The translations under genes were made by a program, and so were the position numbers. 64,000 nt of DNA from Escherichia coli (GTDB taxonomy: Bacteria > Pseudomonadota > Gammaproteobacteria > Enterobacterales > Enterobacteriaceae), in the NCBI RefSeq assembly GCF_002854065.1, contig NZ_CP024147.1; one strand, 5' to 3'. The notes beneath the pieces were generated by a model that was not told the origin of the DNA, did no database searches, and worked only from the letters and a program-made list of their open reading frames with translations. This document shows, piece by piece, positions 5,868 through 47,056 of the stretch. The stretch's first letter is position 1. Each line of letters starts with the position of its first letter.

Positions 5868-7049
5868 ATGCATAACTCCCCCGCAGTCTCCAGCGCGAAA
5901 TCGTTTGACCTGACCTCGACGGCGTTTTTAATCGTTGCCTTTCTCACCGGTATTGCGGGCGCTCTGCAAACCCCGACACTCAGTATTTTTCTTACCGATG
6001 AAGTACATGCCCGTCCGGCGATGGTGGGATTCTTCTTTACCGGCAGCGTTGTCATTGGGATTCTGGTGAGTCAGTTTCTCGCCGGGCGCTCTGATAAGCG
6101 CGGCGATCGCAAATCGCTGATTGTCTTTTGCTGCCTGTTAGGCGTGCTGGCCTGCACCCTTTTTGCCTGGAATCGCAACTACTTTGTTTTGCTATTCGTT
6201 GGCGTCTTTCTTAGCAGCTTTGGCTCGACCGCTAACCCGCAAATGTTTGCCCTTGCCCGTGAACATGCCGACAAAACCGGACGTGAGGCGGTGATGTTCA
6301 GCTCTTTTTTACGCGCTCAGGTTTCACTGGCATGGGTCATTGGCCCACCGCTGGCTTATGCCTTAGCGATGGGTTTCAGCTTTACGGTAATGTATCTGAG
6401 CGCAGCGGTAGCGTTTATTGTTTGCGGCGTGATGGTGTGGCTGTTTTTACCGTCGATGCAAAAAGAGCTTCCGCTGGCGACCGGCACGGTTGAAGCGCCG
6501 CGCCGTAACCGTCGCGATACGCTGCTGCTGTTTGTCATTTGTACATTGATGTGGGGCTCGAACAGTCTGTACATCATCAACATGCCGCTATTTATAATCA
6601 ACGAACTGCATCTTCCCGAGAAACTGGCCGGTGTGATGATGGGGACCGCCGCCGGGCTGGAAATCCCGACCATGTTGATTGCCGGATATTTTGCCAAACG
6701 TCTGGGTAAGAGTTTCTTAATGCGCGTTGCTGCCGTGGGTGGCGTCTGTTTTTACGCAGGAATGCTGATGGCGCATTCTCCTGTCATTCTGTTGGGCTTG
6801 CAGCTGCTAAATGCTATTTTTATTGGCATTCTGGGCGGTATCGGGATGCTCTATTTTCAGGATTTGATGCCCGGTCAGGCAGGTTCAGCCACCACGCTCT
6901 ATACCAACACGTCGCGCGTGGGCTGGATCATCGCAGGATCTGTGGCGGGCATCGTCGCCGAGATCTGGAATTATCACGCTGTGTTCTGGTTTGCGATGGT
7001 GATGATTATCGCCACTCTGTTTTGCTTACTGCGGATTAAAGATGTTTAA
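5868..7049 (+). CDS. setB: Sugar efflux transporter B (MFS)
   Basis: 393-aa polytopic membrane ORF divergent from fruB; matches SetB as recalled. Confidence 0.9.
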
Positions 7050-28394: not shown

Positions 28395-30986
28395 TCAGAA
28401 CGTCCAGACCACACCCGCCTGGGTATTCCACGGCGATTCTACCCCTGCGCCATTGCCATAGCTGACTGACAAATGACCGCTTAACGTCGGGGTAAACGAT
28501 GACCTTATCCCAGCCTGATAAACGCCACGGGTTCCAGCCACATCATTATTAAATTTGCCATCGTCATTAACTTTCACCTGGTTAGAATCGGCGTATTCCT
28601 GACGCACGGCGGCTTTCAGCCAGGGTTCCAGCGTCGTACCGTTTTGCAGGTCCATGTGATAGCTTACCGCCGTTCCCGCTTCAGCGCGTAATATCCGGGT
28701 ATTTCCCACGTCCGCGCGCATGCCGTTTGATAACGTGTAGTCCTGACCATCTGTGGTAAAGCCGGTAAAGGCCAGATAGGGTCTAACACTCCACAATCCG
28801 TCAACCCAACGGAACCCGCTCTCGACATGAGCACCCGCGCCGTTACTATTGTAATCGCCAAACGCTGTTGCCCCATTACTCATCTTGCCATGGATGGTGT
28901 TGGCAAAACGGTCAACTTTCACCACCCCATCAACATAGGCACCGTTCTGATGCTCCCAACCGGCATAAGCCCCCAGGGTATAGCTATCGATATTACCTTT
29001 TCCGCCGCGATCAAAACCAATATCAGAATGAGAGTAACCAAAGAACAAGCCGCGAATTGTACTGCTTTCTTCACGGGAGAAACGGCTATCGATACCGAGC
29101 GTCAGGCCCGTCAATGTTTGCTCAAAACCAGCTCCCGCATCAGTGGTCACGTTGTTGCGAGTGTTAATTGCCGAACTCCACATCGCCGTATCGTAACTAA
29201 CGCCTTTTACGCTACCAAGACGCTCACGCACGGTGTCCAGTTCTGCATCAAATACCAGCGGTTGTGCGGCCGCCATATTCAGCACATCAGTGGTTGAAGG
29301 GGTAATTTGCGCGCGATTCTCTGCCAAACTCCAGCTATGGTTGCCATTATCCAGCAAGGTATATTCATACGTACCGATATCAACAACGCCTCCGGCATTG
29401 CCCAACGTAAATGCAGCATCACCGCCGCCCGTTGTTACCAGTGTAAGGCTATCTCCTGCTGCCGGGCTGGCACCGGTGTCCGTCACGAATATTTTGAAAT
29501 CACCTGTTGCCTGACCGGTGACGTTGAGCTGATCGCTCTGATGATTAGCCATATCGGTACGCATATAAAAATTGCCGTTTCCCGACAGGGTATTGGTGGT
29601 CAACGTAATGAAATTTTCCGCACTTGCCGTCACTGATGAACGAGTCACTGGCTCATCCATCATAATCACATTTGCGTCAGACATCGCAAGGTTGGCTAAG
29701 TTGAGGAGGGTGTTTTGGTTCGTCGTAGTGATATCGGCAATGATGGTCCATACGCTATTTTCGAGCGAAACGTCCGCTTTGCTGGTATCCACGGCACCAT
29801 GCGTTCTAAAAGAAGCGCCCTCAGAAACCACTACCTTACCCACCAACATTGCGGGTGCATAATTTATTTGCGGCTTCATGACCTCAAGAATGCCATCATT
29901 CCCTCTGACTGACACGTTAACCATTGTGCCAGCCCAGACATTAGCGCGGCCATTGTTGATAACCATATTTTCAGAGATGGCTTTAGAGGAATACGTTATA
30001 CTTCCATTCTGATCTGATCGACCGAGATCATATACCGCATTTGCCTGCACTCTCGTCCCAGTATCCTTTCCCAGCGATTGCATAGTGGCATGCTCATCGA
30101 GGATAGTGTCAATGGCCTGCGTGTCCTCCATAACAATAAGCCCGGAACCATCATCCAGTTCATAATTTTTTGACACACCATCTTTTATACTAAATTGGCC
30201 TTTACTGTTTGTACCACTCACTTCCAGCGCATTCGTTGAGACAATTAATTTTCCGCCTGCTTTTTTATCAACGCCAGTTGCAGTCCCGCCATCCATAACC
30301 TCCAGTAAGCCGCCACTATCTACAGTAGTATTATAAGCGAAGTCATTTTCTTCAACTCGCAAACTTCCGCCGTTTTCCAACAGCATATTGTTAGCAATAC
30401 CATTCTTGATTTCGAACTGACCGAGACGGTTTGTTCCGAATACCTCCATGACCCGCGTGCTTGCTTTAATAGCACCGCCTGCTTTCTGATCTACCGCAAA
30501 TGCTAATCCCCCGTCTTTAACCTCCAGTAATCCTCCCTTTTCGATAGCGGCAAAGACGGCAATCCCATCTTTTTCAACAATTAAGCGCCCGCCTTTAATC
30601 GTGGGATCATTCGCCGCGCCATAAACCTGTAGCACACCATTATTGAGCGTAGTCTGGTTTGCCGCGCCACCCATTTGAACAATTTGATAACCATCATTTA
30701 ATACTGAGTATTCTGCGGTGCCATTCATTTCAATGTACTGATACCCGCCGTTAATTTCAGTATTACTACTTATACCAAATTCTTTAATATGCTGTTCTCC
30801 GCCAGAATTGATTTTCGTATTATTGGCGGTCCCATAAACCAGCTGGATATCTTTTTCCAGGACAACACCATCAACTGTCTCACCATACTCAACTGTTGAT
30901 GCCAATGCTATGGGTGAATATAACGCTGTAGCCACCAGAACAGATATTGCGGAACGACAAAGAGAAACAGAACCAGATTGATGCAT
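28395..30986 (-). CDS. yejO: AIDA-like autotransporter (type Va) with repetitive passenger and C-terminal beta-barrel
   Basis: 863-aa intact ORF; N-terminal signal peptide; internally repeated passenger segments (e.g. GGLLEV.DGG...VD.KAGG... recurring); C-terminus ...GVVWTF with terminal aromatic residue typical of outer-membrane barrels. Confidence 0.85.
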   Translation of the reverse strand: MHQSGSVSLCRSAISVLVATALYSPIALASTVEYGETVDGVVLEKDIQLVYGTANNTKINSGGEQHIKEFGISSNTEINGGYQYIEMNGTAEYSVLNDGYQIVQMGGAANQTTLNNGVLQVYGAANDPTIKGGRLIVEKDGIAVFAAIEKGGLLEVKDGGLAFAVDQKAGGAIKASTRVMEVFGTNRLGQFEIKNGIANNMLLENGGSLRVEENDFAYNTTVDSGGLLEVMDGGTATGVDKKAGGKLIVSTNALEVSGTNSKGQFSIKDGVSKNYELDDGSGLIVMEDTQAIDTILDEHATMQSLGKDTGTRVQANAVYDLGRSDQNGSITYSSKAISENMVINNGRANVWAGTMVNVSVRGNDGILEVMKPQINYAPAMLVGKVVVSEGASFRTHGAVDTSKADVSLENSVWTIIADITTTNQNTLLNLANLAMSDANVIMMDEPVTRSSVTASAENFITLTTNTLSGNGNFYMRTDMANHQSDQLNVTGQATGDFKIFVTDTGASPAAGDSLTLVTTGGGDAAFTLGNAGGVVDIGTYEYTLLDNGNHSWSLAENRAQITPSTTDVLNMAAAQPLVFDAELDTVRERLGSVKGVSYDTAMWSSAINTRNNVTTDAGAGFEQTLTGLTLGIDSRFSREESSTIRGLFFGYSHSDIGFDRGGKGNIDSYTLGAYAGWEHQNGAYVDGVVKVDRFANTIHGKMSNGATAFGDYNSNGAGAHVESGFRWVDGLWSVRPYLAFTGFTTDGQDYTLSNGMRADVGNTRILRAEAGTAVSYHMDLQNGTTLEPWLKAAVRQEYADSNQVKVNDDGKFNNDVAGTRGVYQAGIRSSFTPTLSGHLSVSYGNGAGVESPWNTQAGVVWTF

Positions 30987-31305
30987 TGAGCTTTCATCCT
31001 ATGAAATTAATTGCTGTTAAAAGCATTGGGTAGAGAAAATACCCATAGCTCCATACCCGGAGTCAGTTTTTAAAAACTGTTTAAAGAAATGCACAAGTAT
31101 TGTGATTGATTTTTTAGTTGTTTTTCTTGATGAGAAGCTGATGCAAAATTCCGTCTTTATAATGAAAATGATGCCAAAGCGAACGACAAGGTTGTAGTTT
31201 TCGCTACATGTCCATACATAAAATGGGGTAACATTCACGCGCCTGGTAGCGTTACCAACGCTACGCTCAAACATAATGATTCTAATAAAACCTCAGGAGA
31301 CTACT

Positions 31306-31953
31306 ATGCCTGAAGCAACGCCTTTTCAGGTGATGATTGTGGATGATCATCCACTTATGCGACGCGGTGTTCGTCAGTTACTGGAGCTTGATCCTAGCTT
31401 TGAAGTGGTCGCCGAAGCGGGCGACGGCGCGAGTGCTATCGATCTGGCGAATAGACTGGATATCGACGTGATCTTGCTGGATCTCAATATGAAAGGTATG
31501 AGTGGCCTGGATACCCTCAATGCCTTGCGCAGGGATGGCGTTACCGCGCAAATTATTATCCTGACCGTATCAGATGCCTCCAGCGATGTCTTTGCGCTGA
31601 TAGACGCAGGCGCAGACGGTTATCTGTTGAAAGACAGCGACCCGGAAGTGTTGCTGGAAGCGATTCGTGCCGGAGCGAAAGGCAGCAAAGTCTTTAGCGA
31701 ACGCGTCAATCAGTACTTACATGAACGTGAAATGTTTGGCGCGGAAGAAGATCCCTTCAGCGTGCTGACGGAGCGCGAGCTGGATGTTCTGCACGAGCTG
31801 GCACAGGGGCTGTCAAATAAACAGATTGCCTCGGTGTTGAATATTTCAGAGCAGACAGTAAAAGTACATATTCGCAATCTGCTGCGCAAACTCAATGTCC
31901 GCTCACGCGTGGCAGCCACCATTCTGTTCCTGCAACAACGCGGGGCACAATAA
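31306..31953 (+). CDS. narP: Nitrate/nitrite response regulator NarP
   Basis: 215-aa product from ATG 31306 (MPEATPFQVMIVDDHPLMRRG...), receiver + LuxR-type HTH; RBS aggaga at 31294-31299. Confidence 0.93.
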   Translation: MPEATPFQVMIVDDHPLMRRGVRQLLELDPSFEVVAEAGDGASAIDLANRLDIDVILLDLNMKGMSGLDTLNALRRDGVTAQIIILTVSDASSDVFALIDAGADGYLLKDSDPEVLLEAIRAGAKGSKVFSERVNQYLHEREMFGAEEDPFSVLTERELDVLHELAQGLSNKQIASVLNISEQTVKVHIRNLLRKLNVRSRVAATILFLQQRGAQ

Positions 31954-31957
31954 AAAT

Positions 31958-31993
31958 AGCCCGATGGCATGACCATCGGGCCTCTTTTTATTT
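31958..31993. terminator. Hairpin terminator shared by convergent narP and ccmH
   Basis: cccgatgg - catga - ccatcggg followed by cctctttttattt on plus; overlaps the ccmH stop codon; A-rich (taaaaata) on the other flank allows bidirectional function. Confidence 0.6.
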
Positions 31994-33040
31994 ACTCTCC
32001 TGCGGCGACAAATGTTGCATCGCCTGCGCGATACTACGTTCAATCACCGCACGGCGAGTATCGTTGGCAGGTAAGAGTTTCAACATCATCTCCCACGCGG
32101 CAACGGCTTCGCCAAATCGCTGCTGCTCAAAGGCATTAAACGCATACATGCTTAACACACGAATATTGCTATGGTCCGTTCTCACCAACTGGCGCAGCAG
32201 TTCGCCGCCGAGGCGGTTGTCGTTGGGATCAGATGAACGTGTCAACGCTTCAGCATAACCCAGTGCGGCATCGCTGTTTTTCGGATCGAGGCGATACGCA
32301 GTAGCGTATGCATCGGTGGCGATACTGGCGTTACCCAGCGCCATGCCAACGCGACCCAACATAATCCAACCTTCTATATCTCCCGGATTTTTTTGCAGTT
32401 GAGTACGCATCCCCAGCGCAAGGCGCGACATCTCTTCTTCGTTGAGCGGATCGGCTTTCGGATCCAGCGCCCTGTCCAGCAACGCCGGAGCCTGTGCCGT
32501 GGCCTGCTGCCAGATTTTCACCTGCTGATAATTGCCAGTCTGGTAGTAGCTGACGCCAGCCACAATTAACGCCACCACAATACCCGGCAGATAAACAACA
32601 TATCCGGCACGCTTACCTTCCGGCACGCTTTGTTCAGGAAACGCTTCCGGTACCACGCGTACCCGACGCCGCGAACGGGCGTATATGACCCAACCGCCAA
32701 TACCAATAGCCACTACCGGAAGCACCCACAGCAGCACGGTCAGCGGCGTTAACGGCGGATCGTAAGTGACGAAGTTGCCGTAACGCGCCACCATATAATC
32801 GACAATCTCTTTCTTACTTTTGCCTTCCTGCATCAGTTCATACACTTTCTGGCGCAGGTCGGTGGCAATCATCGAGTTGGAATCGGCAATGCTGTTGTTC
32901 TGGCATTTCGGGCAACGCAGTTCTTCAGTGAGCTGACGGAACTGTTGTTCCTGTGCTTCATCTTTAAACTGCAACACATCGATGGTCGCCAGCGCTGAGC
33001 CGGAGATCATCAGCATCAGCACGCCCAATAAAAACCTCAT
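31988..33040 (-). CDS. ccmH: Cytochrome c maturation protein CcmH (CcmH/CcmI fusion, TPR repeats)
   Basis: 350-aa ORF with signal peptide, LRCPKC motif and TPR-like C-terminus; last gene of the nap-ccm cluster. Confidence 0.92.
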   Translation of the reverse strand: MRFLLGVLMLMISGSALATIDVLQFKDEAQEQQFRQLTEELRCPKCQNNSIADSNSMIATDLRQKVYELMQEGKSKKEIVDYMVARYGNFVTYDPPLTPLTVLLWVLPVVAIGIGGWVIYARSRRRVRVVPEAFPEQSVPEGKRAGYVVYLPGIVVALIVAGVSYYQTGNYQQVKIWQQATAQAPALLDRALDPKADPLNEEEMSRLALGMRTQLQKNPGDIEGWIMLGRVGMALGNASIATDAYATAYRLDPKNSDAALGYAEALTRSSDPNDNRLGGELLRQLVRTDHSNIRVLSMYAFNAFEQQRFGEAVAAWEMMLKLLPANDTRRAVIERSIAQAMQHLSPQESK

Positions 33041-33594
33041 TGTGCGGCCTCCTTACTGTATTTCTCCCACAGCGGCTTGATCTCTTCTTCCCAGACGCGA
33101 GGATTCAGATCGCCCGCATGGCGATAGCGAATGATACCGTTGCCGTCAATAAGAAACGTTTCTGGCGCGCCATAGACACCGAGATCCAGCCCTAACATGC
33201 CGTCGCCATCAAACAGGCTTAGCGCGTAAGGATTGCCCAGCTCTTTCAGCCAGCTGATTGCCTTCTGGCGATCGTCTTTATAGTTCATGCCGACCACGCG
33301 GATGCCCTGCGCAGAAAGCTGATTCAGATATTGATGTTCCGCACGGCAGGTCGGACACCAGGTCGCCCAGACGTTAAGCAGCACTGGTTTGCCCTGAGTC
33401 AGCACATCCGCCTGATAAAACTGCCCCGGATTGTCCAGTGATTCGAGACGAAACTTCGGCACTGGCTTGCCAATGAGCGCCGATTCCAGATTGGTCGGAT
33501 CATCCCCTTCGGCATTACGCGCCAGCTGCCACAGCAGCGCCGCGGCAATCGCCAGGAAGATAATCAACGGAATTAACAATACTTTGCGCTTCAT
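33037..33594 (-). CDS. ccmG: Thiol:disulfide interchange protein CcmG/DsbE
   Basis: 185-aa thioredoxin-fold ORF with WCPTC active site; 4-nt overlap with ccmH. Confidence 0.93.
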   Translation of the reverse strand: MKRKVLLIPLIIFLAIAAALLWQLARNAEGDDPTNLESALIGKPVPKFRLESLDNPGQFYQADVLTQGKPVLLNVWATWCPTCRAEHQYLNQLSAQGIRVVGMNYKDDRQKAISWLKELGNPYALSLFDGDGMLGLDLGVYGAPETFLIDGNGIIRYRHAGDLNPRVWEEEIKPLWEKYSKEAAQ

Positions 33595-35534
33595 ACAGCC
33601 TCCGGCGCAGTTTTTTGCGGACTCACGCGCTTACGATAGCGAGGATCAAACAGACACAGCAGTCCGCCCAACGCCATCATCAGCCCGCCCGCCCAAATCC
33701 AGCGAACAAACGGTTTGTAGTAAAGACGCACAGCCCACGCGCCGTTTTCCAGCTCTTCACCGAGCGCGGCGTACAGGTCACGCGTGATGCCACCGTCAAT
33801 CGCCGCTTCGGTCATCATCGACCCGGCAGTGTTGTAATAACGTTTTTCCGCATACAGCACCGTTTCCGGTTTACCCTCTCGCGTTACGCCGATAGTCGCC
33901 ACACCGCCACGCCAGTTCGGGCCAGTCACCTCTTTGACATCACGGAAGGTGAAGCGATATTCATGAATATCGACGCTATCGCCGGACTTCATGCGCACAT
34001 CACGCTCAACGCTATAGTTCTGGCTAAAGGCAATGCCAACAATTGTCACTGCCAGCCCCAGGTGAGCCGCCACCATCCCCCAATAACTGAAGGTGGTTTT
34101 CGTGCCGCGTGAAATACGCAGCACAGCTTCCGCAATTGCCAGCACCGCAATCCAGCAGGCCATTGCCAGGCCGAGCACCGTCATCGCCACCACTTTGCTT
34201 TCGAACAGCCACGGCAACAGCAGAGACAGCACCAGCGTAGAGATAAAGGCGAAAATCAATAAATTGCGGATCTTACGTGGGCGATCGCGCCCCCAGCGCA
34301 CCAGAGGACCGACACCAAGCAGTAGCGCAAACGGCACCATCAGCCAGGTAAACATGGTGTTGAAGAACGGTTCGCCAATCGAAATACTGCCCAGTCCCAG
34401 TTGCTTGTGCACCAGCGGCAGCAGCGTCCCCAGCAACACCACCAGCATCGCGGCGACCAGCAAAACGTTGTTCGCTAACAGCAAAGATTCCCGCGACCAC
34501 AGCGCATTGTTTACGCGTGAGCGAACTTTGTGTCCACGCGCGGCAAACAGCAGCAGCGAACCGCCAATCACCAGCACCATAAAGGCGAGGATAAACATAC
34601 CGCGCGCCGGATCAGACGCAAACGCGTGTACCGATACCAGCACGCCGGAACGCACGAGGAAAGTCCCCAACAGACACAACGAGAAGGCACTGATTGCCAG
34701 CAGTAATGTCCACGCTTTGAAGCTGGCGCGTTGTTCAGTGACCGCAAGTGAGTGCATCAGCGCAGTCCCCACCAGCCACGGCATAAACGAGGCGTTTTCT
34801 ACCGGATCCCAGAACCACCAGCCACCCCAGCCGAGTTCGTAATAGGCCCATGCGGAACCGAGCACAATGCCGAGCGTCAGGAAAATCCACGCCGCCAGCG
34901 TCCACGGGCGAGTAAAACGCGCATAAGTGCTGTCCAAACGCCCGCTCAGCAAAGAAGCAATGGCAAAAGCAAACGCCACCGAGAAACCCACGTACCCCAT
35001 ATAAAGCAGAGGCGGATGGAAGATCAGCCCCGGATCCTGTAACAGCGGGTTAAGATCGCGCCCTTCAATCGGGAAGTTCGGCAGCGTGCGTGAGAATGGG
35101 TTAGAGGTAAAGAGAATGAACAGCAAAAAGCCGACGCTGACCATCCCCATTATCGCCAGTACGCGGGCCACAATATCCAGCGGAATACGCTGACTAAAAA
35201 TCGCCACCGCAAAGGTCCAGCCGCTCATCAGCAGCACCCACAGCAGTAGCGAGCCTTCATGCGCGCCCCAGGTAGCCGCCACGCGATACCACACCGGAAG
35301 CTGGGTATTGGAGTTGCTGGCAACATAGGTGACGGTAAAGTCGTTGACCACGAAAGCATTGACCAGCACCAGAAATGCGCCAGCCACAGACATAAACAGC
35401 AGCCAGGCAAACAAGCGGGAAGACGCCATCATGCGCGCATCTCCGCGCGCCACGCCCCATAGCGGATACACGGACAGCAGCAGCGCAATCCCTAACGCCA
35501 GGCACAGCAGCCCGTTACCAATTTCCGGCATCAT
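33591..35534 (-). CDS. ccmF: Cytochrome c-type biogenesis heme lyase subunit CcmF
   Basis: 647-aa polytopic ORF with [12 protein letters not shown] tryptophan-rich motif. Confidence 0.93.
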
Positions 35535-36010
35535 GATGCTGGGTCCTTATAAACACTCGCCGGGCGACGGTGGTTAGCTTCCATCGCTTTCTCAACTTCT
35601 GGCGGCGTATAGTTTTCATCGTGTTTCGCCAGCACTTCTTTCGCGAGGATATGATTGCCTTTTTCCAGCTCGCCTTGCACCACAACGCCCTGCCCTTCAC
35701 GGAACAGATCCGGCAAAATGCCTTCGTAAGAGACATCCACTGAGCCTTCAGCGTCGTAAATGGTGAACGTTACTTTCAGCGAATTGGGATCGCGCTGCAC
35801 GCTACCCGGCATCACCATCCCGCCAACGCGCAGACGCTGACCGACTTCCGGCATCTGCTGAGTTTCACGCTTGCCGTAGAGAATTTCCCCCGGCGTATAA
35901 AAGAGATCGATATTCGAGCGCAGCGCATATAGCACCAGACCGATAGTCAGCGCCAGCCCTGCCAACACGGCACAGGCAATCCACAAGCGGTTTTTACGGC
36001 GAATATTCAT
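35531..36010 (-). CDS. ccmE: Heme chaperone CcmE
   Basis: 159-aa ORF, single N-terminal TM segment, matches CcmE as recalled. Confidence 0.93.
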
Positions 36011-36216
36011 GCAGCCTCCTGCTGTTGTGCAGCACGTAAACGCGCCTCTCGCGCCCGCTGTTGCGCCACGCTACGCAGAATTGCGCGATGCTGCATCACC
36101 GAGTGCACGACCAAAACCACCAGCGGAATAACGGTCATCACCACCGCCAGCCAGACAAAAAAGGCGTAACCGCCCATTGCGAAAAATTCATTCCAGGAAG
36201 CAAATGCAGGGGTCAT
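36007..36216 (-). CDS. ccmD: Heme exporter protein CcmD
   Basis: 69-aa single-TM ORF coupled between ccmC and ccmE. Confidence 0.88.
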
Positions 36217-36950
36217 TTACGGCCTCTTTTCAGTATCAGTTCACTCACCCACGGACGGCGTTTTTCCATCAGCAAAATCAAATTACGCATCCGCATCAGC
36301 GTCAGCGTGGCAGACAGGAGCAGGAAGCCAAAAATCGACCAGCGCAGCGGCGAACGCATCGCCGGATCGATACTTTGCTGCATCCGCGTTGATCCCTGAT
36401 GCAGGGTGTTCCACCACTCCACGGAGTAATGAATAATCGGCAGATTCACCACGCCAATCAGCACCAGGATACCTGCCGCACGGCCCGCCAGACGGCGGTC
36501 GTCGAAGGCGTGCCACAGGGCAATCACACCCACATACAAAAACAGCAGCACCAGTTCAGAAGTCAGACGTGCATCCCATACCCACCAGGTGCCCCACATC
36601 GGTTTTCCCCATGCAGAGCCGGTAACCAGGGCAATAAAGGTAAACACGGCACCAATGGGGGCCATCGCCGCCACCGCCAGGTTGGCCATTTTCATCTGCC
36701 AGACAAGGCCAATAAACGCCGCCACCGCCATTGATGCATAAATGCCCATCGACCAGATCGCCGCAGGCACATGCAGGTAGATAATGCGGTAGCTATTTCC
36801 CTGCTGATAATCAGCCGGAGCAAAGCCGAATCCCCAGATCCAGCCGACGGTAAGCACGACCACACTGGCAATTGCCAGCCACGGTATAAACCAGCCACAG
36901 ATTTGATACAGCCGTGGTGGGATCGCCAGTTGATGCAGTGTTTTCCACAT
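36213..36950 (-). CDS. ccmC: Heme exporter protein CcmC
   Basis: 245-aa product from internal Met (MWKTLHQLAIPPR...); WGxxWxWD tryptophan-rich motif; the 8-codon upstream extension in the track is unsupported. Confidence 0.9.
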   Translation of the reverse strand: MWKTLHQLAIPPRLYQICGWFIPWLAIASVVVLTVGWIWGFGFAPADYQQGNSYRIIYLHVPAAIWSMGIYASMAVAAFIGLVWQMKMANLAVAAMAPIGAVFTFIALVTGSAWGKPMWGTWWVWDARLTSELVLLFLYVGVIALWHAFDDRRLAGRAAGILVLIGVVNLPIIHYSVEWWNTLHQGSTRMQQSIDPAMRSPLRWSIFGFLLLSATLTLMRMRNLILLMEKRRPWVSELILKRGRK

Positions 36951-36991
36951 AGTTTCGATACCAGACTCGAACAAAAATCAGTAATCCAGCG

Positions 36992-37654
36992 TTATTGAAT
37001 GCTGATTCGTAACGCTGCCGCCGTCGCAAAAGGACTTAATGTCGCGGTGCCTGCCAGCAACGCGCCTAAAATTGCCAGATACCCGTCAACGGGCAAATGC
37101 ATAGAAGCCGCGTCCATCGCGGCGGTGGCAAAGATGAGTAATGGGATAGTCAGCGGTAACACCAGTATGCTGAGCAGCACACCACCGCGCTTAAGTCCCA
37201 CTGTCAGCGCCACGCCCGGCGCACCAAGAAAGCCAAGCGTAGGCGTTCCCAGCAGTAGCGTTAACGCCATCACTTGCCAGCCATAAACATCCATTCCCAG
37301 TAGCATTGCTACCAGGGGCGAAAGGATGAGTAACGGCAGACCGGTTACCATCCAGTGCGCCATCACCTTCGCCAGCACAACGGCGGGCAAGGGTAACGGC
37401 AACAACATCAATTGTTCAAGACTGCCGTCCTGCAAATCGTCACGGAACAGTCGTTCCAGCGCCAGCAAGGATGAAAGCAGCGCAGCAACCCAGATAATGC
37501 CCGGTGCAATACGCGCCAGCAGTTGCGGCTCCGGACCGATACTGAGCGGAAAAAGGGTAATTACAATCAGGAAGAACCACAGCGGGTTGGCGATTTCAGC
37601 GCTATGGCAAAACGCTACGCGCAGCTCAAGACGGAAAATGCGCCAGAACATCAT
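36992..37654 (-). CDS. ccmB: Heme exporter permease CcmB
   Basis: 220-aa polytopic ORF. Confidence 0.92.
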
Positions 37655-38274
37655 ACGGCCCTCGTTTGCGTCAGTGAAATGCGGCGAATTTTACTTTCAG
37701 CAACGTTGAGCGGCTGGTGGGTAGTGAGAATCACAATCCCCCCCTGCTCTGTATGCTGCGCCATACGCTGGGTCAGACGATCGACGCCGTTAACGTCAAT
37801 CGCGGTAAAAGGCTCGTCGAGGATCCATAACGTGGCACGGGTCAGCCACAGACGCGCTAAAGCGACGCGGCGTTGTTGCCCGGCAGAAAGTTGATTTACC
37901 GGAATATCTTCGAATCCGGCAAGCCCGGCCTGCGCCAGGGCTGCCAGACATTGTGCGGTATCGCCATCGCGATGATAAAAGTGCAGATTTTCTAACGCCG
38001 TCAGCCGGGTTTTGATCCCCGGCTGATGGCCTATCCATAACAGGTTTTGATGGTAGCTGTCGCGTACCTGATGCAAGGGCTGCCCTTGCCAGAGAACCTC
38101 GCCTGCGTCAGGGCGAGACAACCCCGTCAGCAAACGGAGAAGCGTTGTCTTCCCCGCGCCGTTGCTACCGGTGATTTGTACCCACTCTCCTGCGTTCAGC
38201 GTAAATGACAAGCCACTAAATAAGGTTCGTTCATCCCGCTCACAAAGTAACTCTCTGACTTCAAGCATACCCAC
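37651..38274 (-). CDS. ccmA: Heme exporter ATP-binding protein CcmA
   Basis: 207-aa ABC ATPase (Walker [10 protein letters not shown], signature LSAGQQRR). Confidence 0.9.
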
Positions 38275-38286
38275 GCAATAACCCTG

Positions 38287-38889
38287 TTAAAAACCTGGCT
38301 CGACTTCACGCATATCGGGGAGCTTGTGCGCTATCCCTTTATGGCAATCAATACAGGTTTGCCCATCTTTCACCGCCTGGTCATGCATCTTCGCGGCAAC
38401 CGATTTCTGGGCGGTTGTATCCATATACTCGAAGTTGTGACAGTTACGGCACTCCTGCGAGTTATTGTCCTTCATGCGCCGCCACTCATTCTGTGCCATC
38501 GTCAGACGATGAGCTTCAAATTTCTGCGGCGTGTCAATAACGCCAAAAATTTTACCATACAGCTCTTTACTTGCTTTGAGCTTGCGTATCATCTTCGGCA
38601 CAAACTCGTGCGGAACGTGACAATCCGGACAGGTCGCACGGACGCCGCTACGGTTGTTGTAGTGCACGGAATCCATGTATTCCTGATACACCGTGTTACG
38701 CATTTCGTGGCAGCTAATGCAGAACTCTTCGGTATTGGCTTTTTCCATCCCGGTGTTAAAGCCGCCCCAGAAGACGATGCCGCCGACAAAACCGATCAAC
38801 AGCAGCGTCCCCAGCGCCAGACGGCTGGGGGTACGCCACCATTTCCACAGGCGCTTAATCAGACCAGGCTTACGGTCAGAATTTCCCAT
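38287..38889 (-). CDS. napC: Membrane-bound tetraheme cytochrome c NapC (NapC/NirT family)
   Basis: 200-aa ORF with four CxxCH heme-binding motifs. Confidence 0.93.
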   Translation of the reverse strand: MGNSDRKPGLIKRLWKWWRTPSRLALGTLLLIGFVGGIVFWGGFNTGMEKANTEEFCISCHEMRNTVYQEYMDSVHYNNRSGVRATCPDCHVPHEFVPKMIRKLKASKELYGKIFGVIDTPQKFEAHRLTMAQNEWRRMKDNNSQECRNCHNFEYMDTTAQKSVAAKMHDQAVKDGQTCIDCHKGIAHKLPDMREVEPGF

Positions 38890-38898
38890 AATAACCTC

Positions 38899-39348
38899 TT
38901 ATTTCCCGTAACCTTTTGATGGGGTAAAGGTATTCCCCACGATTGGCGCGGTATCGGCCTGCGGTACGTGACATTGCAGACAGAAATAACGACGCGGAGC
39001 CACTTCCGCGCCCACTTTGCCGTCGCTGTCCATAAAGTGAGTAGGACTGATACGCGGCGCGCCAGTGGTGCGATAGCTTTCGACACCGTGGCACTGCAAG
39101 CAGCGGTTGGTATTGGTCGTTACCTGATAACCTTCAACGCTATGCGGGATCATTGGCGGCTGATTCACATAGTTCAGCGGCATCCGATCCTGCTCTTTTG
39201 GCATCCGAATGGCCCCTTCCTGCGTCCCGGATACTTCCGGCGACTGGCTAAAATCGACGCCATTAGCCGCCCAAACCGCGCCGCTTACCACCAGGGCCAG
39301 CATCGCCGTCCATTGACACAGCGCTTTCTTCAGGTCATGGCTTTTCAT
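38899..39348 (-). CDS. napB: Periplasmic diheme cytochrome c NapB
   Basis: 149-aa product from internal Met ([13 protein letters not shown]...), two CxxCH motifs; 7-codon upstream extension in the track unsupported. Confidence 0.9.
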   Translation of the reverse strand: MKSHDLKKALCQWTAMLALVVSGAVWAANGVDFSQSPEVSGTQEGAIRMPKEQDRMPLNYVNQPPMIPHSVEGYQVTTNTNRCLQCHGVESYRTTGAPRISPTHFMDSDGKVGAEVAPRRYFCLQCHVPQADTAPIVGNTFTPSKGYGK

Positions 39349-40208
39349 GATTTCGCTCCCGAACTCCATCGTGTAGTTATTGTAAATACATCCTCAGAAC
39401 AGACATCCACGCAGCGACCGCACGTCATGCAATCGCGGCTGGTGACCTGCACCGGGCTTTGTTCATCCAGCACCGGGGCACGTAGCACATGCGGTTCCGG
39501 GCAAACATGAAAACAATCCATACAGCGGTTACATTTCTGCCGATCGCTGGCCGCAACGGTAATCACACCTTTGCTACCCAGCACGCCATACAGCGCGCCA
39601 ACCGGACAAATGTGCCCGCACCAGCCGTGTTCAACGACCAGTAGATCAAATAAAAACAGCGCGAGAATAAGCAGCGCGCCGCTGCCGAAGCCCATTACCA
39701 GGCTACGCCCCATCAGGGAAACGGGGTTGATCCATTCCCAGATGAGCGTGCCAGTTAAGGCTGATCCCACCAGAATGACCACCAACAGCACGTAGCGAAT
39801 GTGGCGAGGGATCGTCGCAGACTGATTGAGGTCAAAGCGCCTGCGTAACCAGTTCGCTAAGTCGGTAATCGGGTTCAGCGGGCAGACCCAGCTGCAAAAT
39901 AATCGCTTTCCTGCCAGGGCGTAGAGCACGGTGATAATCACCGCACCGGTCAACGCCACCGTGGCAGGCAGATGACCACTGGCAAGACTTTGCAGCGTCA
40001 TCAGCGGATCGGTCAGCGGAACGGTGTCGAATAACAGGCTACTGCTGTAGTTGCCGTGCAAGATCCACACACCAAACCACGGACCGCTCAAAAACATCCC
40101 CAGCACGAAGAACTGACAAAGGCGACGTAACACCAGCCAACGGTGACTGCGCCACCAGCCTTTTTTCTCCAGCGCCTCGCGCCCGGCGTCACGTTTACGA
40201 TTTGCCAT
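39345..40208 (-). CDS. napH: Membrane ferredoxin-type protein NapH
   Basis: 287-aa ORF with TM segments and C-terminal Cys clusters; 4-nt overlap with napB. Confidence 0.92.
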
Positions 40209-40890
40209 TGTTCCCCTCCAGCCAGCCGAAGCGGTAATGGTGACCTAACTCCCCTTTCGCCAGTGACAGCGGTAACACCTTGATTGCCGGTTGTTCCAGC
40301 ACGCACACTTTTTCGCACTTACCGCAGCCGGTACAGGCGTCGCTGTGAACCGTCGGCAGAAAGCGGGCGTGCTTACCGGTACGCGTATTGCGCTCCAGCT
40401 CCAGGGTGATGGCCTCATCAATTTTCGGGCATTCGCGATAACAAACATCGCAGCGCAGCCCCTGAAAGTTGAGACAGTTTTCCTGGTCCACCAGTACCGC
40501 CAGCCCCATCCGCGCTTCGTCGATCGATTCGATCTCACGATCCAGCGCACCGCTCGGGCACACTTTGGCGCACGGAATGTCCTCACACATTTCGCAAGGA
40601 ATATCCCGTGCGACAAAATATGGCGTGCCCGCCGACAGGCCAGAAGCCAGCGTCGCCAGTTTTAAGGTGTCGTAAGGGCAAGCCTGAACACACTGACCGC
40701 AACGCACACAGGCACTGGCAAAGGCGTTCTCGTTTATGGCTCCGGGCGGGCGCAACCGCACGCCAGATGCGCGTGCGGTTTGCTGTTGTAACCCCAGCGC
40801 CACACCCACGGCAGCCAGCCCGCCTGCTGTGCGAACGACATCGCGCAGAAAGCGGCGGCGACCATTTTGAGGTTTCGCTGACCGGGACAT
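40195..40890 (-). CDS. napG: Periplasmic ferredoxin-type protein NapG
   Basis: 231-aa ORF with Tat-like RRRFLR signal and four CxxCxxCxxxCP clusters. Confidence 0.92.
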
Positions 40891-40896
40891 AATGGC

Positions 40897-43383
40897 TTAC
40901 ACCTTCTCCAGTTTGACCGCGCACTTCTTGAAGTCCGTCTCTTTCGAGAGCGGATCGGTCGCATCCAGCGTCAGTTTGTTAACCAGCTGTGCGGCGTCGA
41001 AGAACGGCATGTACACCAGGCCCTGCGGCGGACGGTTACGACCGCGCGTTTCGACAATCGAGATCACTTCGCCACGGCGAGAAACCACTTTCACTTTGTC
41101 GCCACGACGCAGATCGCGCGCTTTCGCATCCAGCGGGTGAATAAACAGGACCGCTTCCGGGAAGGCGCGGTGCAGTTCCGGCACACGGCGAGTCATACTG
41201 CCGGTGTGCCAGTGCTCCAGGACGCGTCCGGTAGAGAGCCACAGGTCGTACTCTTCATCCGGTGCTTCCGCCGCTGGTTCGAACGGCAGTGCGAAGATCA
41301 CCGCTTTGCCATCCGGTTTACCGTAGAACTTGTAGCCTTCGCCCGCTTTCACGTACGGGTCGTTACCTTCGCTGTAACGCCACTGAGTTTCTTTACCGTT
41401 CACCACCGGCCAGCGCAGACCGCGCGCTTTGTGGTAGTCATCGAACGGCGCGAGATCGTGACCGTGACCGCGACCAAACCATGCGTACTCTTCGAACAGC
41501 CCTTTTTGCAGATAGAAGCCCAGCTCGCGGGATTCATCGTTCAGCTGATCTTCCGCCAGTTCGGATACCGGGAATTTGCTCACTTCGGGGGTGGCATACA
41601 GAACTTCGTACAGCGTTTTGCCACGCAGTTCCGGTTTCTTCGCCAGCAGCTCTTCCGGCCATACTTCTTCAGTTTTGAAGCGGCGGGAGAACTGGACTAA
41701 CTGCCAGAGATCCGATTTCGCTTCGCCTGGCGCCTGTACCTGCTGACGCCAGAACTGAGTACGGCGTTCGGCGTTACCGTAAGCGCCCTCTTTCTCTACC
41801 CACATTGCGGTCGGCAGGATCAAGTCGGCGGCCAGCGCACTGACTGTCGGATACGGATCGGAGACGATGATGAAGTTGCGCGGATCGCGCCAGCCCGGCA
41901 TACGCTCTTCATTAATGTTCGGCCCGGCCTGCATGTTGTTGGTACACATGGTCCAGTAAACATTCAGCTTGCCGTCTTTCAGCGCACGGTCTTGTGCTAC
42001 CGCATGCAGACCGATTTTCGCCGGAATGGTGCCGCTCGGGATATTCCACTTCTTCTCGCAGATATCACGATGTTTCTCGTTAGTTACCACCATGTCCGCA
42101 GGCAGACGGTGGGCAAAGGTGCCCACTTCACGCGCAGTACCACACGCGGAAGGCTGCCCGGTCAGGGAGAACGGACCGCAACCCGGCTGGGAAATTTTGC
42201 CGGTCAGCAGGTGCAGGTTGTAGACCAGGTTGTTGGCCCACACGCCACGAGTATGCTGGTTGAAGCCCATCGTCCAGTAGGAGATGACTTTCTTGTTCGG
42301 ATCGGCATACAGCTGCGCCAGTTGTTCTAACTGGTCTTTCGGCACGCCGGTCATTTCAGCGGTTTTTTCCAGCGTATACTCAGCAACGAAGGCTTTGTAA
42401 TCTTCGAAGCTCATCGGTTCGGAGGCGTCAGAACCCGGATTCTTCGCTGCTTTTTCCAGCGGATGGGTCGGACGTAAACCGTAGCCGATGTCCGTCGCCC
42501 CTTTGCGCAGGTTAACGTGCTTGCTGAAGAAGTCCTGATTTATCGCATTGTTTTGAATGATATAGTTGGCGATGTAGTTCAGGATCACCAGGTCAGATTG
42601 CGGCGTAAAGATGATGCCGTTATCCGCCAGCTCGAAGCTACGATGCTGGTAGGTTGAAAGCACCGCCACGGTGACGTCCTGGTTAGAGAGACGACGGTTA
42701 GTGATGCGTGACCAGAGGATCGGGTGCATCTCCGCCATGTTTGCGCCCCACAGCACAAACGCGTCAGCCTGCTCGATGTCGTCATAGCAGCCCATCGGCT
42801 CATCCATACCAAAGGTACGCATAAAGCCAACTACTGCCGATGCCATACAGTGACGCGCGTTCGGGTCGATGTTGTTCGAACGGAAGCCCGCTTTGAACAG
42901 CTTGGACGCGGCATAACCTTCCCAGATAGTCCACTGACCAGAACCGAACATACCGATCGATTCCGGCCCTTTTTCTTTCAGGGCGGTTTTGAATTTCTCT
43001 TCCATCACATCGAAGGCCTGATCCCAGGTGATTGGGGTAAATTCGCCTTCTTTGTCATATTTACCGTTTTTCATACGCAGCAGCGGCTGCGTCAAACGGT
43101 CTTTACCGTACATGATCTTGGGCAGGAAATAGCCCTTAATGCAGTTCAGGCCACGGTTAACCGGTGCGTCCGGGTCGCCCTGACAGGCCACCACACGCCC
43201 CTGCTGCGTTCCGACCAGAACGCCGCAACCAGTACCGCAGAAACGGCACGGCGCTTTATCCCATTTAATGGCTTCCTGCTGACCAACAACGGCATGGGCA
43301 ACGCCCGGCACGCTGAGACCGGCAGCCGCCGCAGCGGCCGCAACGGCGTTAGCTTTCATAAAGCTACGACGACTGAGTTTCAT
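40897..43383 (-). CDS. napA: Periplasmic nitrate reductase catalytic subunit NapA
   Basis: 828-aa ORF with twin-arginine signal (SRRSFMK) and N-terminal Cys cluster for the [4Fe-4S] centre; molybdopterin oxidoreductase family. Confidence 0.95.
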
Positions 43384-43643
43384 GGTGTTTCCTCACCTTG
43401 CTCTTCCTGCTGGTGATAAACCAGCGACACCGCCAGCACGCCCTCTACGTTGCGTACTGACTCAATGGTTTGGATCAGCGTTTCGCTGTCTTCTGCTTCC
43501 ACCACCACAATCAACTGACCGCTCGGCGCGTCGCTGACAGCAACTTCACAGCCGGGAAAGGCGTTCAGTTGGGTGCTGATGTCTGAAATTCGTTCGCTTT
43601 TGGCCTGCACGACCAGGCTGCAAACTTGCCAGTTAGTGTGCAT
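43380..43643 (-). CDS. napD: NapA chaperone NapD
   Basis: 87-aa ORF coupled to napA (4-nt overlap). Confidence 0.9.
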
Positions 43644-44127
43644 GGAGATACTCCGCAGTTATGGCTGATACCGGACAGCTGGCTGCACATGCTCCACATC
43701 CGTTGCAAAGTTGGCTATTAAGTTGCGGCTGGTAGATCCCGGAGAGCGTCGGGCGAAAGATAATTGCCATTGGCTCACAGCTATCCTGACAGCGGCGGCA
43801 TTCAACTGACTGATACGCCAGGCACGCGTCCCCAATGGTGAACTGCAAATCCCAGGCCCTGGTGTGGCGCGGAGAAAATAGCGATTCGGGGCAAGCCTGC
43901 GCGCAGGCGTAACAGAAGCTGCACTCGTTATTTTTGAAATTAACGCTCGGATAGCCGCCCGCGCCGCGTTGCAGGATGTTGTTTTCACAAGCATTAATAC
44001 AGGCGTCGCAGCGGGTGCAATGGGTCAGAAAATGAGATTCATCACCGGACCAGGGCGGACGGATACCGTTACTGGCTTTGCGCCAGCGACCAGTGAGTAT
44101 GCCCCGACGGGATGCATCAATCTTCAC
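43633..44127 (-). CDS. napF: Ferredoxin-type protein NapF
   Basis: 164-aa ORF with multiple CxxCxxCxxxCP motifs; first gene of the nap-ccm cluster. Confidence 0.92.
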   Translation of the reverse strand: MKIDASRRGILTGRWRKASNGIRPPWSGDESHFLTHCTRCDACINACENNILQRGAGGYPSVNFKNNECSFCYACAQACPESLFSPRHTRAWDLQFTIGDACLAYQSVECRRCQDSCEPMAIIFRPTLSGIYQPQLNSQLCNGCGACAASCPVSAITAEYLHAH

Positions 44128-44235
44128 ATTGACCTTCCATCATTAACGCGCTCTGAAAATTGAGAGCGACCAAATAAACCGCATAATTAATAAGCCATTT
44201 TTATAGCCGCTAAGATATTAAAGGATGTGTCAAAG

Positions 44236-44400
44236 ATGCATACCCCGATCGAGGTAAAACCTGTAGCAGGATCAAAAGAGTGGCGGGAAGCGTGGCAAAA
44301 ACGGGCTTTTGCTCACATTTCAAATGGTTATAAATATATTTATATAGCGATTAATTCACCAGAGATATTTCTGCTGGTTTGTTCTCTCATCAGAATTTAA
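44236..44400 (+). CDS. yojO: Small ORF (54 aa), candidate YojO
   Basis: ATG 44236 to TAA 44398-44400 encodes MHTPIEVKPVAGSKEWREAWQKRAFAHISNGYKYIYIAINSPEIFLLVCSLIRI; below the ORF-track cutoff; overlaps the napF regulatory sites, so coding status is uncertain. Confidence 0.4.
   Translation: MHTPIEVKPVAGSKEWREAWQKRAFAHISNGYKYIYIAINSPEIFLLVCSLIRI
44241..44256 (-). promoter_or_regulatory. NarL/NarP 7-2-7 heptamer pair in the napF control region
   Basis: TACCCCG-AT-CGAGGTA: two inverted TACYYMT-like heptamers with 2-bp spacing, about 115-130 bp upstream of napF ATG. Confidence 0.6.
44262..44275 (-). promoter_or_regulatory. Putative FNR site upstream of napF
   Basis: Minus-strand TTGAT-CCTG-CTACA: one perfect FNR half-site, centred 20 bp upstream of the NarP site, as expected for the napF promoter architecture; second half-site poor. 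Confidence 0.4.
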
Positions 44401-44533
44401 CACTAAAAGAGCAGGTAAAATTGTCTGAATATTCTTTAAGTTATTCATAAAGCAAATTAATAAATCTGATGAATATGTTAACCTTCAGCGACATCATCGG
44501 TGCAAACCTATAAATGAAGAAGGAAAGCAAAAA

Positions 44534-45022
44534 ATGAAGACCATTCTACCTGCAGTATTGTTTGCCGCTTTCGCCACCACTTCCGCCTGGGCGGCAGAGA
44601 GCGTCCAGCCACTGGAAAAAATCGCGCCTTATCCACAAGCTGAAAAAGGCATGAAGCGTCAGGTGATTCAGTTAACCCCGCAAGAAGATGAATCTACCCT
44701 GAAAGTAGAACTGTTAATCGGTCAGACGCTGGAAGTCGATTGCAATTTTCATCGTCTCGGCGGGAAGCTGGAAAGCAAAACGCTGGAAGGCTGGGGCTAT
44801 GATTATTATGTCTTTGATAAAGTTAGCTCGCCGGTTTCCACGATGATGGCCTGCCCGGATGGCAAGAAAGAGAAGAAATTTGTCACCGCGTATCTGGGCG
44901 ATGCTGGAATGCTGCGTTACAACAGCAAGCTGCCGATCGTGGTGTATACGCCAGACAATGTAGATGTGAAGTACCGCGTCTGGAAGGCGGAAGAGAAAAT
45001 TGACAACGCGGTAGTTCGCTAA
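44534..45022 (+). CDS. eco: Ecotin (periplasmic serine protease inhibitor)
   Basis: 162-aa ORF with signal peptide; matches ecotin as recalled. Confidence 0.95.
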
Positions 45023-45028
45023 ACTGCC

Positions 45029-45395
45029 GTGAAGTGCGGCACCCCGTAGGTTGGATAAAGCGGTCACGCCGCATCCGACATCTAACGCCCGAGCCGGTTG
45101 CCTGATGCGACGCTGACGCGTGTTATCAGGCCTACACCGCTGTGAAGTGCTCCACCCCGTAGGTCGGATAAGGCGGTTACGCCGCATCCGACATCCAACG
45201 TCCGAGCCGGTTGCCTGATGCGACGCTGACGCGTCTTATCAGGCCTACACCGCTGTGAAGTGCGGCACCCCATAGGTTGGATAAGGCGGTTACGCCGCAT
45301 CCGACATCCAACGCCCGAGCCGGTTGCCTGATGCGACGCTGGCGCGTCTTATCAGCATACGCCACATCCGGCATACCATGCCGGATGTGGCACAT
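45029..45395. repeat. BIME/REP array: three tandem 113-bp units plus a terminal perfect hairpin
   Basis: Unit starts at 45029, 45142 and 45255 (period 113), each carrying two REP-like palindromes; followed by perfect 14-bp inverted repeat gccacatccggcat/atgccggatgtggc (45361-45391) abutting the mqo stop. Confidence 0.85.
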
Positions 45396-45397
45396 CA

Positions 45398-47056
<1,659 letters not shown>

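Follow-up and report, generated by a model that had tools for sequence, protein, structure and literature searches.

The minus strand of a 64,000-nt stretch of Escherichia coli DNA (contig NZ_CP024147.1; "the window" below is this whole stretch) carries 15 co-directional genes, napFDAGHBC-ccmABCDEFGH, which occupy the 12,140 nt from position 31988 to 44127. The combined results presented here make it very probable that this region is the E. coli nap-ccm (aeg-46.5) operon, a single minus-strand unit of ~12.2 kb that is most likely translated in five blocks. The locus, its genes, their regulation and the general meaning of the ATGA overlaps that link many of them are already known. An earlier note, made from the sequence alone, had rightly called the cluster known biology, and its discovery value is little; it serves as a calibration case for sequence-only reading. 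The modest addition of the present analysis is that the break in the overlap chain between ccmB and ccmC is conserved across Proteobacteria.

Identity of the locus and layout of its genes

Two E. coli strains have chromosomes that match the DNA from 31988 to 44127 at 100% identity. One identical RefSeq record, annotated by the Prokaryotic Genome Annotation Pipeline (PGAP), was mapped base for base onto the window (window position = locus position + 28987); it lists the same 15 genes with the same coordinates and lengths, and the flanks of the cluster differ between the two by 18 substitutions and no indels. In the K-12 MG1655 annotation (b2208-b2194), the 15 genes again have lengths and spacing equal to those in the window. 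NCBIfam models place 13 of the 15 proteins above the cutoff of the equivalog or subfamily model of their own name, with CcmF passing the CcmF/NrfE subfamily model. CcmH has an NrfF-type match only, which spans residues 5-120 and lies below cutoff, and its name comes from the RefSeq annotation. The System I set is complete, with CcmA to CcmG above cutoff in NCBIfam and CcmH by its RefSeq name, and the Nap genes follow one another as napF, D, A, G, H, B, C on one strand, as in K-12, with each accessory protein above its equivalog cutoff. The gene identities, order and strand proposed in the earlier note are the same as those given by RefSeq, K-12 and NCBIfam.

Starts, stops and junctions were read directly from the sequence. 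In the following list, given in the order of transcription, the signed number is the distance to the preceding gene (minus for an overlap, plus for a gap), and "ABC" stands for ATP-binding cassette.

43633..44127, minus strand: napF, the operon's first gene, for a ferredoxin-type protein of 164 aa with a GTG start; 248 bits with the TIGR00402 equivalog (cutoff 102)
43380..43643, minus strand: napD, chaperone of the NapA signal peptide, 87 aa; shares 11 nt with the 3' end of napF (-11); NF007840 equivalog, 168 bits vs 113
40897..43383, minus strand: napA, catalytic molybdoenzyme subunit, 828 aa; ATGA overlap with napD (-4); TIGR01706, 1655 bits
40195..40890, minus strand: napG, ferredoxin-type protein, 231 aa; 6 nt past napA (+6); NF007012, 415 bits
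39345..40208, minus strand: napH, quinol dehydrogenase ferredoxin subunit, 287 aa; shares 14 nt with napG (-14); NF007013, 471 bits
38899..39348, minus strand: napB, dihaem cytochrome c subunit, 149 aa; ATGA overlap with napH (-4)
38287..38889, minus strand: napC, tetrahaem quinol dehydrogenase, 200 aa; 9-nt gap from napB (+9); NF007906, 463 bits
37651..38274, minus strand: ccmA, ABC ATPase, 207 aa, GTG start; 12-nt gap from napC (+12); NF010061, 332 bits
36992..37654, minus strand: ccmB, ABC permease, 220 aa; ATGA overlap with ccmA (-4); TIGR01190, 313 bits
36951..36991, minus strand: ccmB-ccmC spacer, 41 nt (+41), the sole large break in the overlap chain
36213..36950, minus strand: ccmC, haem-handling WWD protein, 245 aa, ATG start
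36007..36216, minus strand: ccmD, 69 aa; ATGA overlap with ccmC (-4); TIGR03141, 68.5 bits vs 26
35531..36010, minus strand: ccmE, haem chaperone, 159 aa; ATGA overlap with ccmD (-4); NF009635, 322 bits
33591..35534, minus strand: ccmF, haem lyase, 647 aa; ATGA overlap with ccmE (-4); TIGR00353, 1013 bits
33037..33594, minus strand: ccmG (dsbE), thiol:disulfide oxidoreductase, 185 aa; ATGA overlap with ccmF (-4); NF011941, 422 bits
31988..33040, minus strand: ccmH, fused CcmH-CcmI type, 350 aa; ATGA overlap with ccmG (-4)

NapA scores ~1650 bits with the TIGR01706 and NF010055 equivalogs (cutoffs 904-931) and carries a twin-arginine signal at its N-terminus. CcmC has the WGTWWVWD motif and is identical in sequence to chain C of PDB entry 7F02.

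The region was found in 5425 of 5426 complete E. coli genomes at 95-100% identity, one genome being without it. The same search gave one record that matched at 60-80% identity only, one match on a plasmid and some genomes with the region in two places. The six longest plus-strand open reading frames (ORFs) over the cluster (165-249 aa) had no Pfam match and were read as shadow ORFs. An Rfam scan of 31000-45500 (E<=0.1) gave no family inside the cluster, the only matches being naRNA4 of the REP (repetitive extragenic palindromic) type outside it.

Junction geometry and probable translation in blocks

ATGA is the literal sequence at 8 of the 14 junctions, namely all those of -4 nt; overlaps of at least 4 nt occur at 10 of the 14, and the remaining four are gaps. 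The statement of the earlier note that most junctions overlap is thus borne out, and its 14-nt napH/napG and 11-nt napD/napF overlaps are exact. Such density is unusual for the window, where none of the 27 other same-strand pairs of coding sequences (CDSs) has a 4-nt overlap (vs 8/14 here; Fisher p=3e-5) and four have an overlap of any length (vs 10/14; Fisher p=5e-4). Similarly, nine of the 14 nap-ccm junctions belong to the -8..+6 class, compared with 24% of unidirectional pairs in the E. coli genome (PMC10666635; binomial p=0.0014). ATGA is the commonest junction across prokaryotes, and overlapped or close E. coli pairs are 4.5-fold enriched for heteromeric complexes (PMC10666635). Given that the nap and ccm genes encode multi-subunit assemblies, which are enriched among closely spaced pairs, their dense packing is to be expected. 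Among relatives, the napF/napD overlap of 11 nt is kept in E. albertii and the napG/napH overlap of 14 nt in E. albertii and Citrobacter; the 9-nt gap between napB and napC, which holds the napC Shine-Dalgarno sequence (SD), is kept in three relatives. The other overlaps in the window are of 13 nt between psuK and psuG (359-371), of 1 nt in fruK/fruB, yejB/yejE and alkB/ada, and of 4 nt at the 3' ends of the convergent setB and yeiW (7046-7049).

The genes behind all eight ATGA junctions have an SD within the upstream coding sequence, with duplex energies of -5.8 to -12.1 kcal/mol, the strongest being that of ccmH (-12.1). The napF SD has -6.7 kcal/mol, and the anti-SD duplex averages -7.3 over the cluster vs -3.1 ± 2.5 at random cluster positions. 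The two genes behind the longest gaps, ccmA and ccmC, have an SD at chance level (-3.8 and -3.1), which would set a low entry rate into both ccm blocks. By its geometry, termination-reinitiation is open to the eight ATGA junctions and the one of +6 nt, while -11, -14, +9, +12 and +41 lie outside the efficient range. The gaps divide the cluster as follows.

Block 1: napF-D-A, with -11 and -4 inside; the first block
Block 2: napG-H-B, with -14 and -4 inside; preceded by the +6 gap
Block 3: napC, a single gene; preceded by the +9 gap
Block 4: ccmA-B, with -4 inside; preceded by the +12 gap
Block 5: ccmC-D-E-F-G-H, with five consecutive ATGA; preceded by the +41 gap

In the proposed mechanism, the stop codon of each gene within a block overlaps the next start, with the SD in the upstream gene, so that a terminating ribosome would reinitiate on the spot and the output of neighbouring genes would be tied together. 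Between blocks (+6, +9, +12 and +41 nt), the next gene would be initiated afresh. We infer both the reinitiation and a role of the blocks in setting protein ratios from this geometry. Coupling within the blocks is probable at each ATGA junction, because the same geometry was coupled in four of five native E. coli -4 pairs by termination-reinitiation (PMC6728339), with an effect that decays with distance: 40-80% of the coupling is lost at +14 nt and nearly all of it at +38 nt (PMC6728339, PMC10666635). Coupling is less certain at the 11-nt and 14-nt overlaps, since the start that the ribosome has to locate there lies upstream of the stop; genes behind the +9, +12 and +41 gaps are likely to be initiated afresh. 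Coupling of napD and napA has been assumed by workers who cloned the pair (PMC4159696). The earlier note had seen translational coupling across about 12 kb; the overlap geometry behind that claim stands, whereas its unbroken extent does not, as the four gaps separate five blocks and the coupling itself is read from geometry.

The overlaps could alternatively reflect compact packing without coupling, where each gene initiates at its own SD and ATGA is kept as a constraint on start and stop. Several observations speak for this and weigh against coupling. Every overlapped junction has a moderate-to-strong SD of its own, ATGA is commonplace in all prokaryotes as mentioned above, and its conservation is weak evidence of coupling because any change would destroy a start or a stop codon. 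The fifth native pair tested, bioBF, is an ATGA pair without coupling (PMC6728339), and a literature search found neither direct coupling tests nor ribosome profiling at nap/ccm junctions. The accessibility of start sites, predicted as the partition-function unpaired probability from -18 to +12 in a 150-nt context, was 0.446 for overlapped and 0.474 for gapped genes, with 0.389 ± 0.096 for random positions, and fell below the median at ccmF and ccmH only. As overlapped and gapped genes were alike in this respect, structural masking of start sites was dropped as support for coupling; with start sites not predicted to be occluded, ribosomes could load directly at the internal SDs. Nevertheless, packing as the whole explanation is unlikely in view of the four native ATGA pairs that are coupled, the enrichment of overlapped E. 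coli pairs for heteromeric complexes, and the placement of the overlaps inside known assemblies with the large gap between modules, a pattern repeated across Proteobacteria. Coupling within the five blocks is the reading that we carry forward.

Transcription and start codons

The napFDAGHBC-ccmABCDEFGH cluster is treated in the literature as one anaerobically induced, Fnr-dependent unit (PMC2634741, PMC10937671), and no spacer inside it exceeds 41 nt. The elements at its two ends are listed below.

44328..44349, minus strand: AT-rich palindrome CGCTATATAAATATATTTATAA of ModE-like type, upstream of the napF promoter
44262-44275, minus strand: Fnr-like TTGATCCTGCTACA, centred 20 bp upstream of the heptamer pair
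44241-44256, minus strand: inverted heptamer pair TACCTCG-AT-CGGGGTA, upstream of napF, read from the sequence
31958..31982, both strands: bidirectional intrinsic terminator hairpin, 11 pairs with a T-run on each strand

We take the heptamer pair to be a NarP/NarL site and TTGATCCTGCTACA to be the Fnr site, in the -44.5/-64.5 geometry of the work of Darwin, Stewart and Gunsalus; CGCTATATAAATATATTTATAA is presumably the ModE element. A scan with the Fnr consensus (up to two mismatches) did not return the napF site among its matches, one half-site being poor and the whole too degenerate. The sites of NarP, Fnr-like and ModE-like type at 44241-44349 all lie within the small plus-strand gene yojO (44236-44400; 54 aa, uncharacterised). 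At the other end, the hairpin lies 6 nt past the ccmH stop and 5 nt past that of the convergent narP, which it also serves; it is the top-ranked terminator-like site on both strands. One transcript would run from the Fnr/NarP-type control region to the hairpin just past ccmH; it would carry the genes for periplasmic nitrate reductase, for the proteins that mature it or donate electrons to it, and for all eight System I proteins.

The intergenic region between narP and ccmH (31954-31987) has 34 nt and one hairpin here vs 210 nt in K-12, where two near-copies of the hairpin flank REP/BIME (bacterial interspersed mosaic element) elements. The length difference looks like an insertion/deletion polymorphism of REP elements between hairpin copies.

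Functionally, nap and ccm might be two operons, with ccm expressed mainly from an internal promoter and the continuity only physical. Tanapongpipat and colleagues (1998) reportedly found an additional ccmA promoter inside napC, a point against nap and ccm being solely one unit. The napC-ccmA junction is a +12 gap followed by a ccmA SD at chance level, and napC adjoins ccmA in only three of the 120 ccm loci sampled across Proteobacteria (see below). In most other gamma-proteobacteria, moreover, ccm is separate and has its own predicted Fnr/NarP sites (PMC1805755). These points are set against a 12-nt spacer with no terminator-like hairpin between napC and ccmA, and against databases and papers that give a single unit. 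A sigma-70 scan had no minus-strand promoter-like site inside napC; with 7 matches vs 6.8 expected, it is uninformative. An internal promoter is also compatible with read-through from the napF promoter, and we consider a functional division into two operons somewhat unlikely. The single unit remains the preferred reading.

Two of the 15 genes have longer forms in the mechanical ORF list, which starts ccmC at TTG 36974 (253 aa) and napB at ATG 39369 (156 aa). The PGAP and K-12 annotations both choose the downstream codons, ATG 36950 for ccmC (245 aa) and ATG 39348 for napB (149 aa), in agreement with the earlier note, which had held that the ORF list overstates both N-termini and had proposed the reference annotation as the check. 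The long forms begin with valid start codons in open frame, and the SD of ccmC is equally weak for both candidates (-3.1 each); SD strength was consequently set aside as a discriminator for ccmC in favour of a comparison across genera. In this comparison, with starts placed by alignment, the ccmC ATG had an offset of 0 in 16 of the 16 gamma-proteobacterial relatives with a scored ccmB-ccmC junction, while the spacer ahead of it varied from 1 to 166 nt, including a REP-like insertion. Two codons 5' of the conserved ATG, Enterobacter, Klebsiella and the nap-linked Citrobacter cluster carry a TGA in frame, and the longer form of ccmC is therefore impossible in them. The E. coli CcmC chains in the PDB (7F02_C and eight further entries) have 245 aa, i.e. 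residues 9-253 of the long ORF; they are no independent evidence of the start because they follow annotation.

For napB, the annotated ATG has a GGGAG SD (-6.6 kcal/mol) and forms the ATGA with napH, whereas ATG 39369 is without an SD (+0.8). Positions 1-149 of the NapB equivalog NF008609 align to residues 8-156 of the long ORF, and with the seven extra residues (MEFGSEI) the MKSHDLKK n-region of the signal peptide would be preceded by acidic residues. Conservation of the upstream napB ATG in relatives is uninformative, because that codon sits inside napH. It is, in sum, highly improbable that the long ORFs are the real genes, and the shorter forms of ccmC and napB are used throughout.

The start of ccmA is ambiguous, with the annotated GTG at 38274, an ATG two codons on at 38268 and an SD at chance level for both (-3.8). 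E. albertii has both codons, Enterobacter the GTG without the ATG, and Citrobacter the ATG without the GTG; on these sequences, the ccmA start seems to differ from genus to genus. In K-12, the protein records of ccmA (.2) and napB (.4) have been revised.

Elsewhere in the window, the autotransporter gene yejO (28395-30986) is intact and encodes 863 aa, whereas IS5 interrupts the K-12 copy, which is a pseudogene. The eco-mqo intergenic region (45049-45357) holds three tandem matches to the Rfam family naRNA4 (RF02564, REP325-type nucleoid-associated RNA); two of them, at 75.3 and 60.5 bits, exceed the gathering score, and the other (56.2) falls just short of it.

The ccmB-ccmC break and comparison with known systems

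For a comparison of ccm loci across Proteobacteria, one genome per species was scanned for the tryptophan-rich motif of CcmC, which gave 120 loci. The ccm genes in them were called by homology and their starts placed by alignment to the E. coli N-termini, with no preference for overlaps. The loci collapsed to 68 clusters at 80% CcmC identity, and the share for ccmB/C comes from 47 CcmC clusters. The share of CcmC clusters with a 4-nt overlap at each junction was as follows.

ccmA/B: -4 in 51%
ccmB/C: -4 in ~4%; a gap of more than 12 nt in ~77%
ccmC/D: -4 in 44%
ccmD/E: -4 in 71%
ccmE/F: -4 in 51%
ccmF/G: -4 in 46%
ccmG/H: -4 in 42%

A 4-nt overlap is the commonest state at every ccm junction but ccmB/C, and the E. 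coli layout, including the ccmB/C break, is therefore the ancestral System I habit. Two features of the comparison temper this and what follows from it, namely that the sample is biased to alpha-proteobacteria and that the start calls are heuristic.

Within the ccmB-ccmC spacer, Enterobacterales conserve the ~20 nt adjoining the ccmC ATG, which read GAGTCTGGTGACTGAACT in relatives and GAGTCTGGTATCGAAACT here, and the remainder has from 36 to 103 nt, with the REP-like insert in Enterobacter. The GGTGA before ccmC could pair with UCACC of the 16S rRNA 3' end, the E. coli version being weaker.

Cryo-electron microscopy has given the stoichiometry CcmA2B2C1D1, and CcmAB is dispensable for the formation of holo-CcmE (PMC9616876). 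The ccmB/C break coincides with the 2:1 step of this complex and with the independence of CcmC(DE) from CcmAB, while the 1:1 pairs are overlapped. A tentative proposal, for which the odds are perhaps somewhat against us, is that the ccm junction map encodes assembly modules and subunit ratios, with ATGA joining 1:1 partners (CcmA to CcmB, and CcmC to CcmD and on through E, F, G and H) and a chance-level SD at ccmC beyond the break, and that selection keeps the translation of ccmC uncoupled from that of ccmB; such selection is suggested by the conservation of the break in alpha-, beta- and gamma-proteobacteria while the spacer varies. If true, the ccmB-ccmC break would be a simple, testable example of gene junctions mirroring the composition of a complex.

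Citrobacter werkmanii has two ccm clusters, one of which is nap-linked as in E. coli. In the second, ccmH is split into two ORFs with an ATGA overlap, and a NapC/TorC-like gene follows 168 nt on.

The closest known counterpart of the cluster is the aeg-46.5 operon of E. coli K-12, which has the same 15 genes, order, CDS lengths and 14 junction distances; the two differ at the strain level outside the genes, in the narP-ccmH spacer, and by a few amino-acid substitutions. With regard to translation, the nap and ccm junctions resemble the coupled E. coli ATGA pairs hyfHI, astDB, ydbH-ynbE as well as menDH (Huber et al. 2019, 2023) in the shared 4-nt overlap, the SD in the upstream gene and the complex-forming products. 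Coupling of those pairs is known from reporter fusions, whereas nap and ccm are likened to them by sequence geometry, and the -11 and -14 overlaps of nap fall outside the -8..+6 class of the Huber et al. studies. The System I clusters of other Proteobacteria share the gene order and junction habit described here, with overlaps at A/B and from C/D to G/H and a gap at B/C. They differ in that they are mostly not fused to nap, ccm being a separate operon in other gamma-proteobacteria (PMC1805755 Table 1), in that ccmH and ccmI are often separate genes, and in that the clusters are often split.

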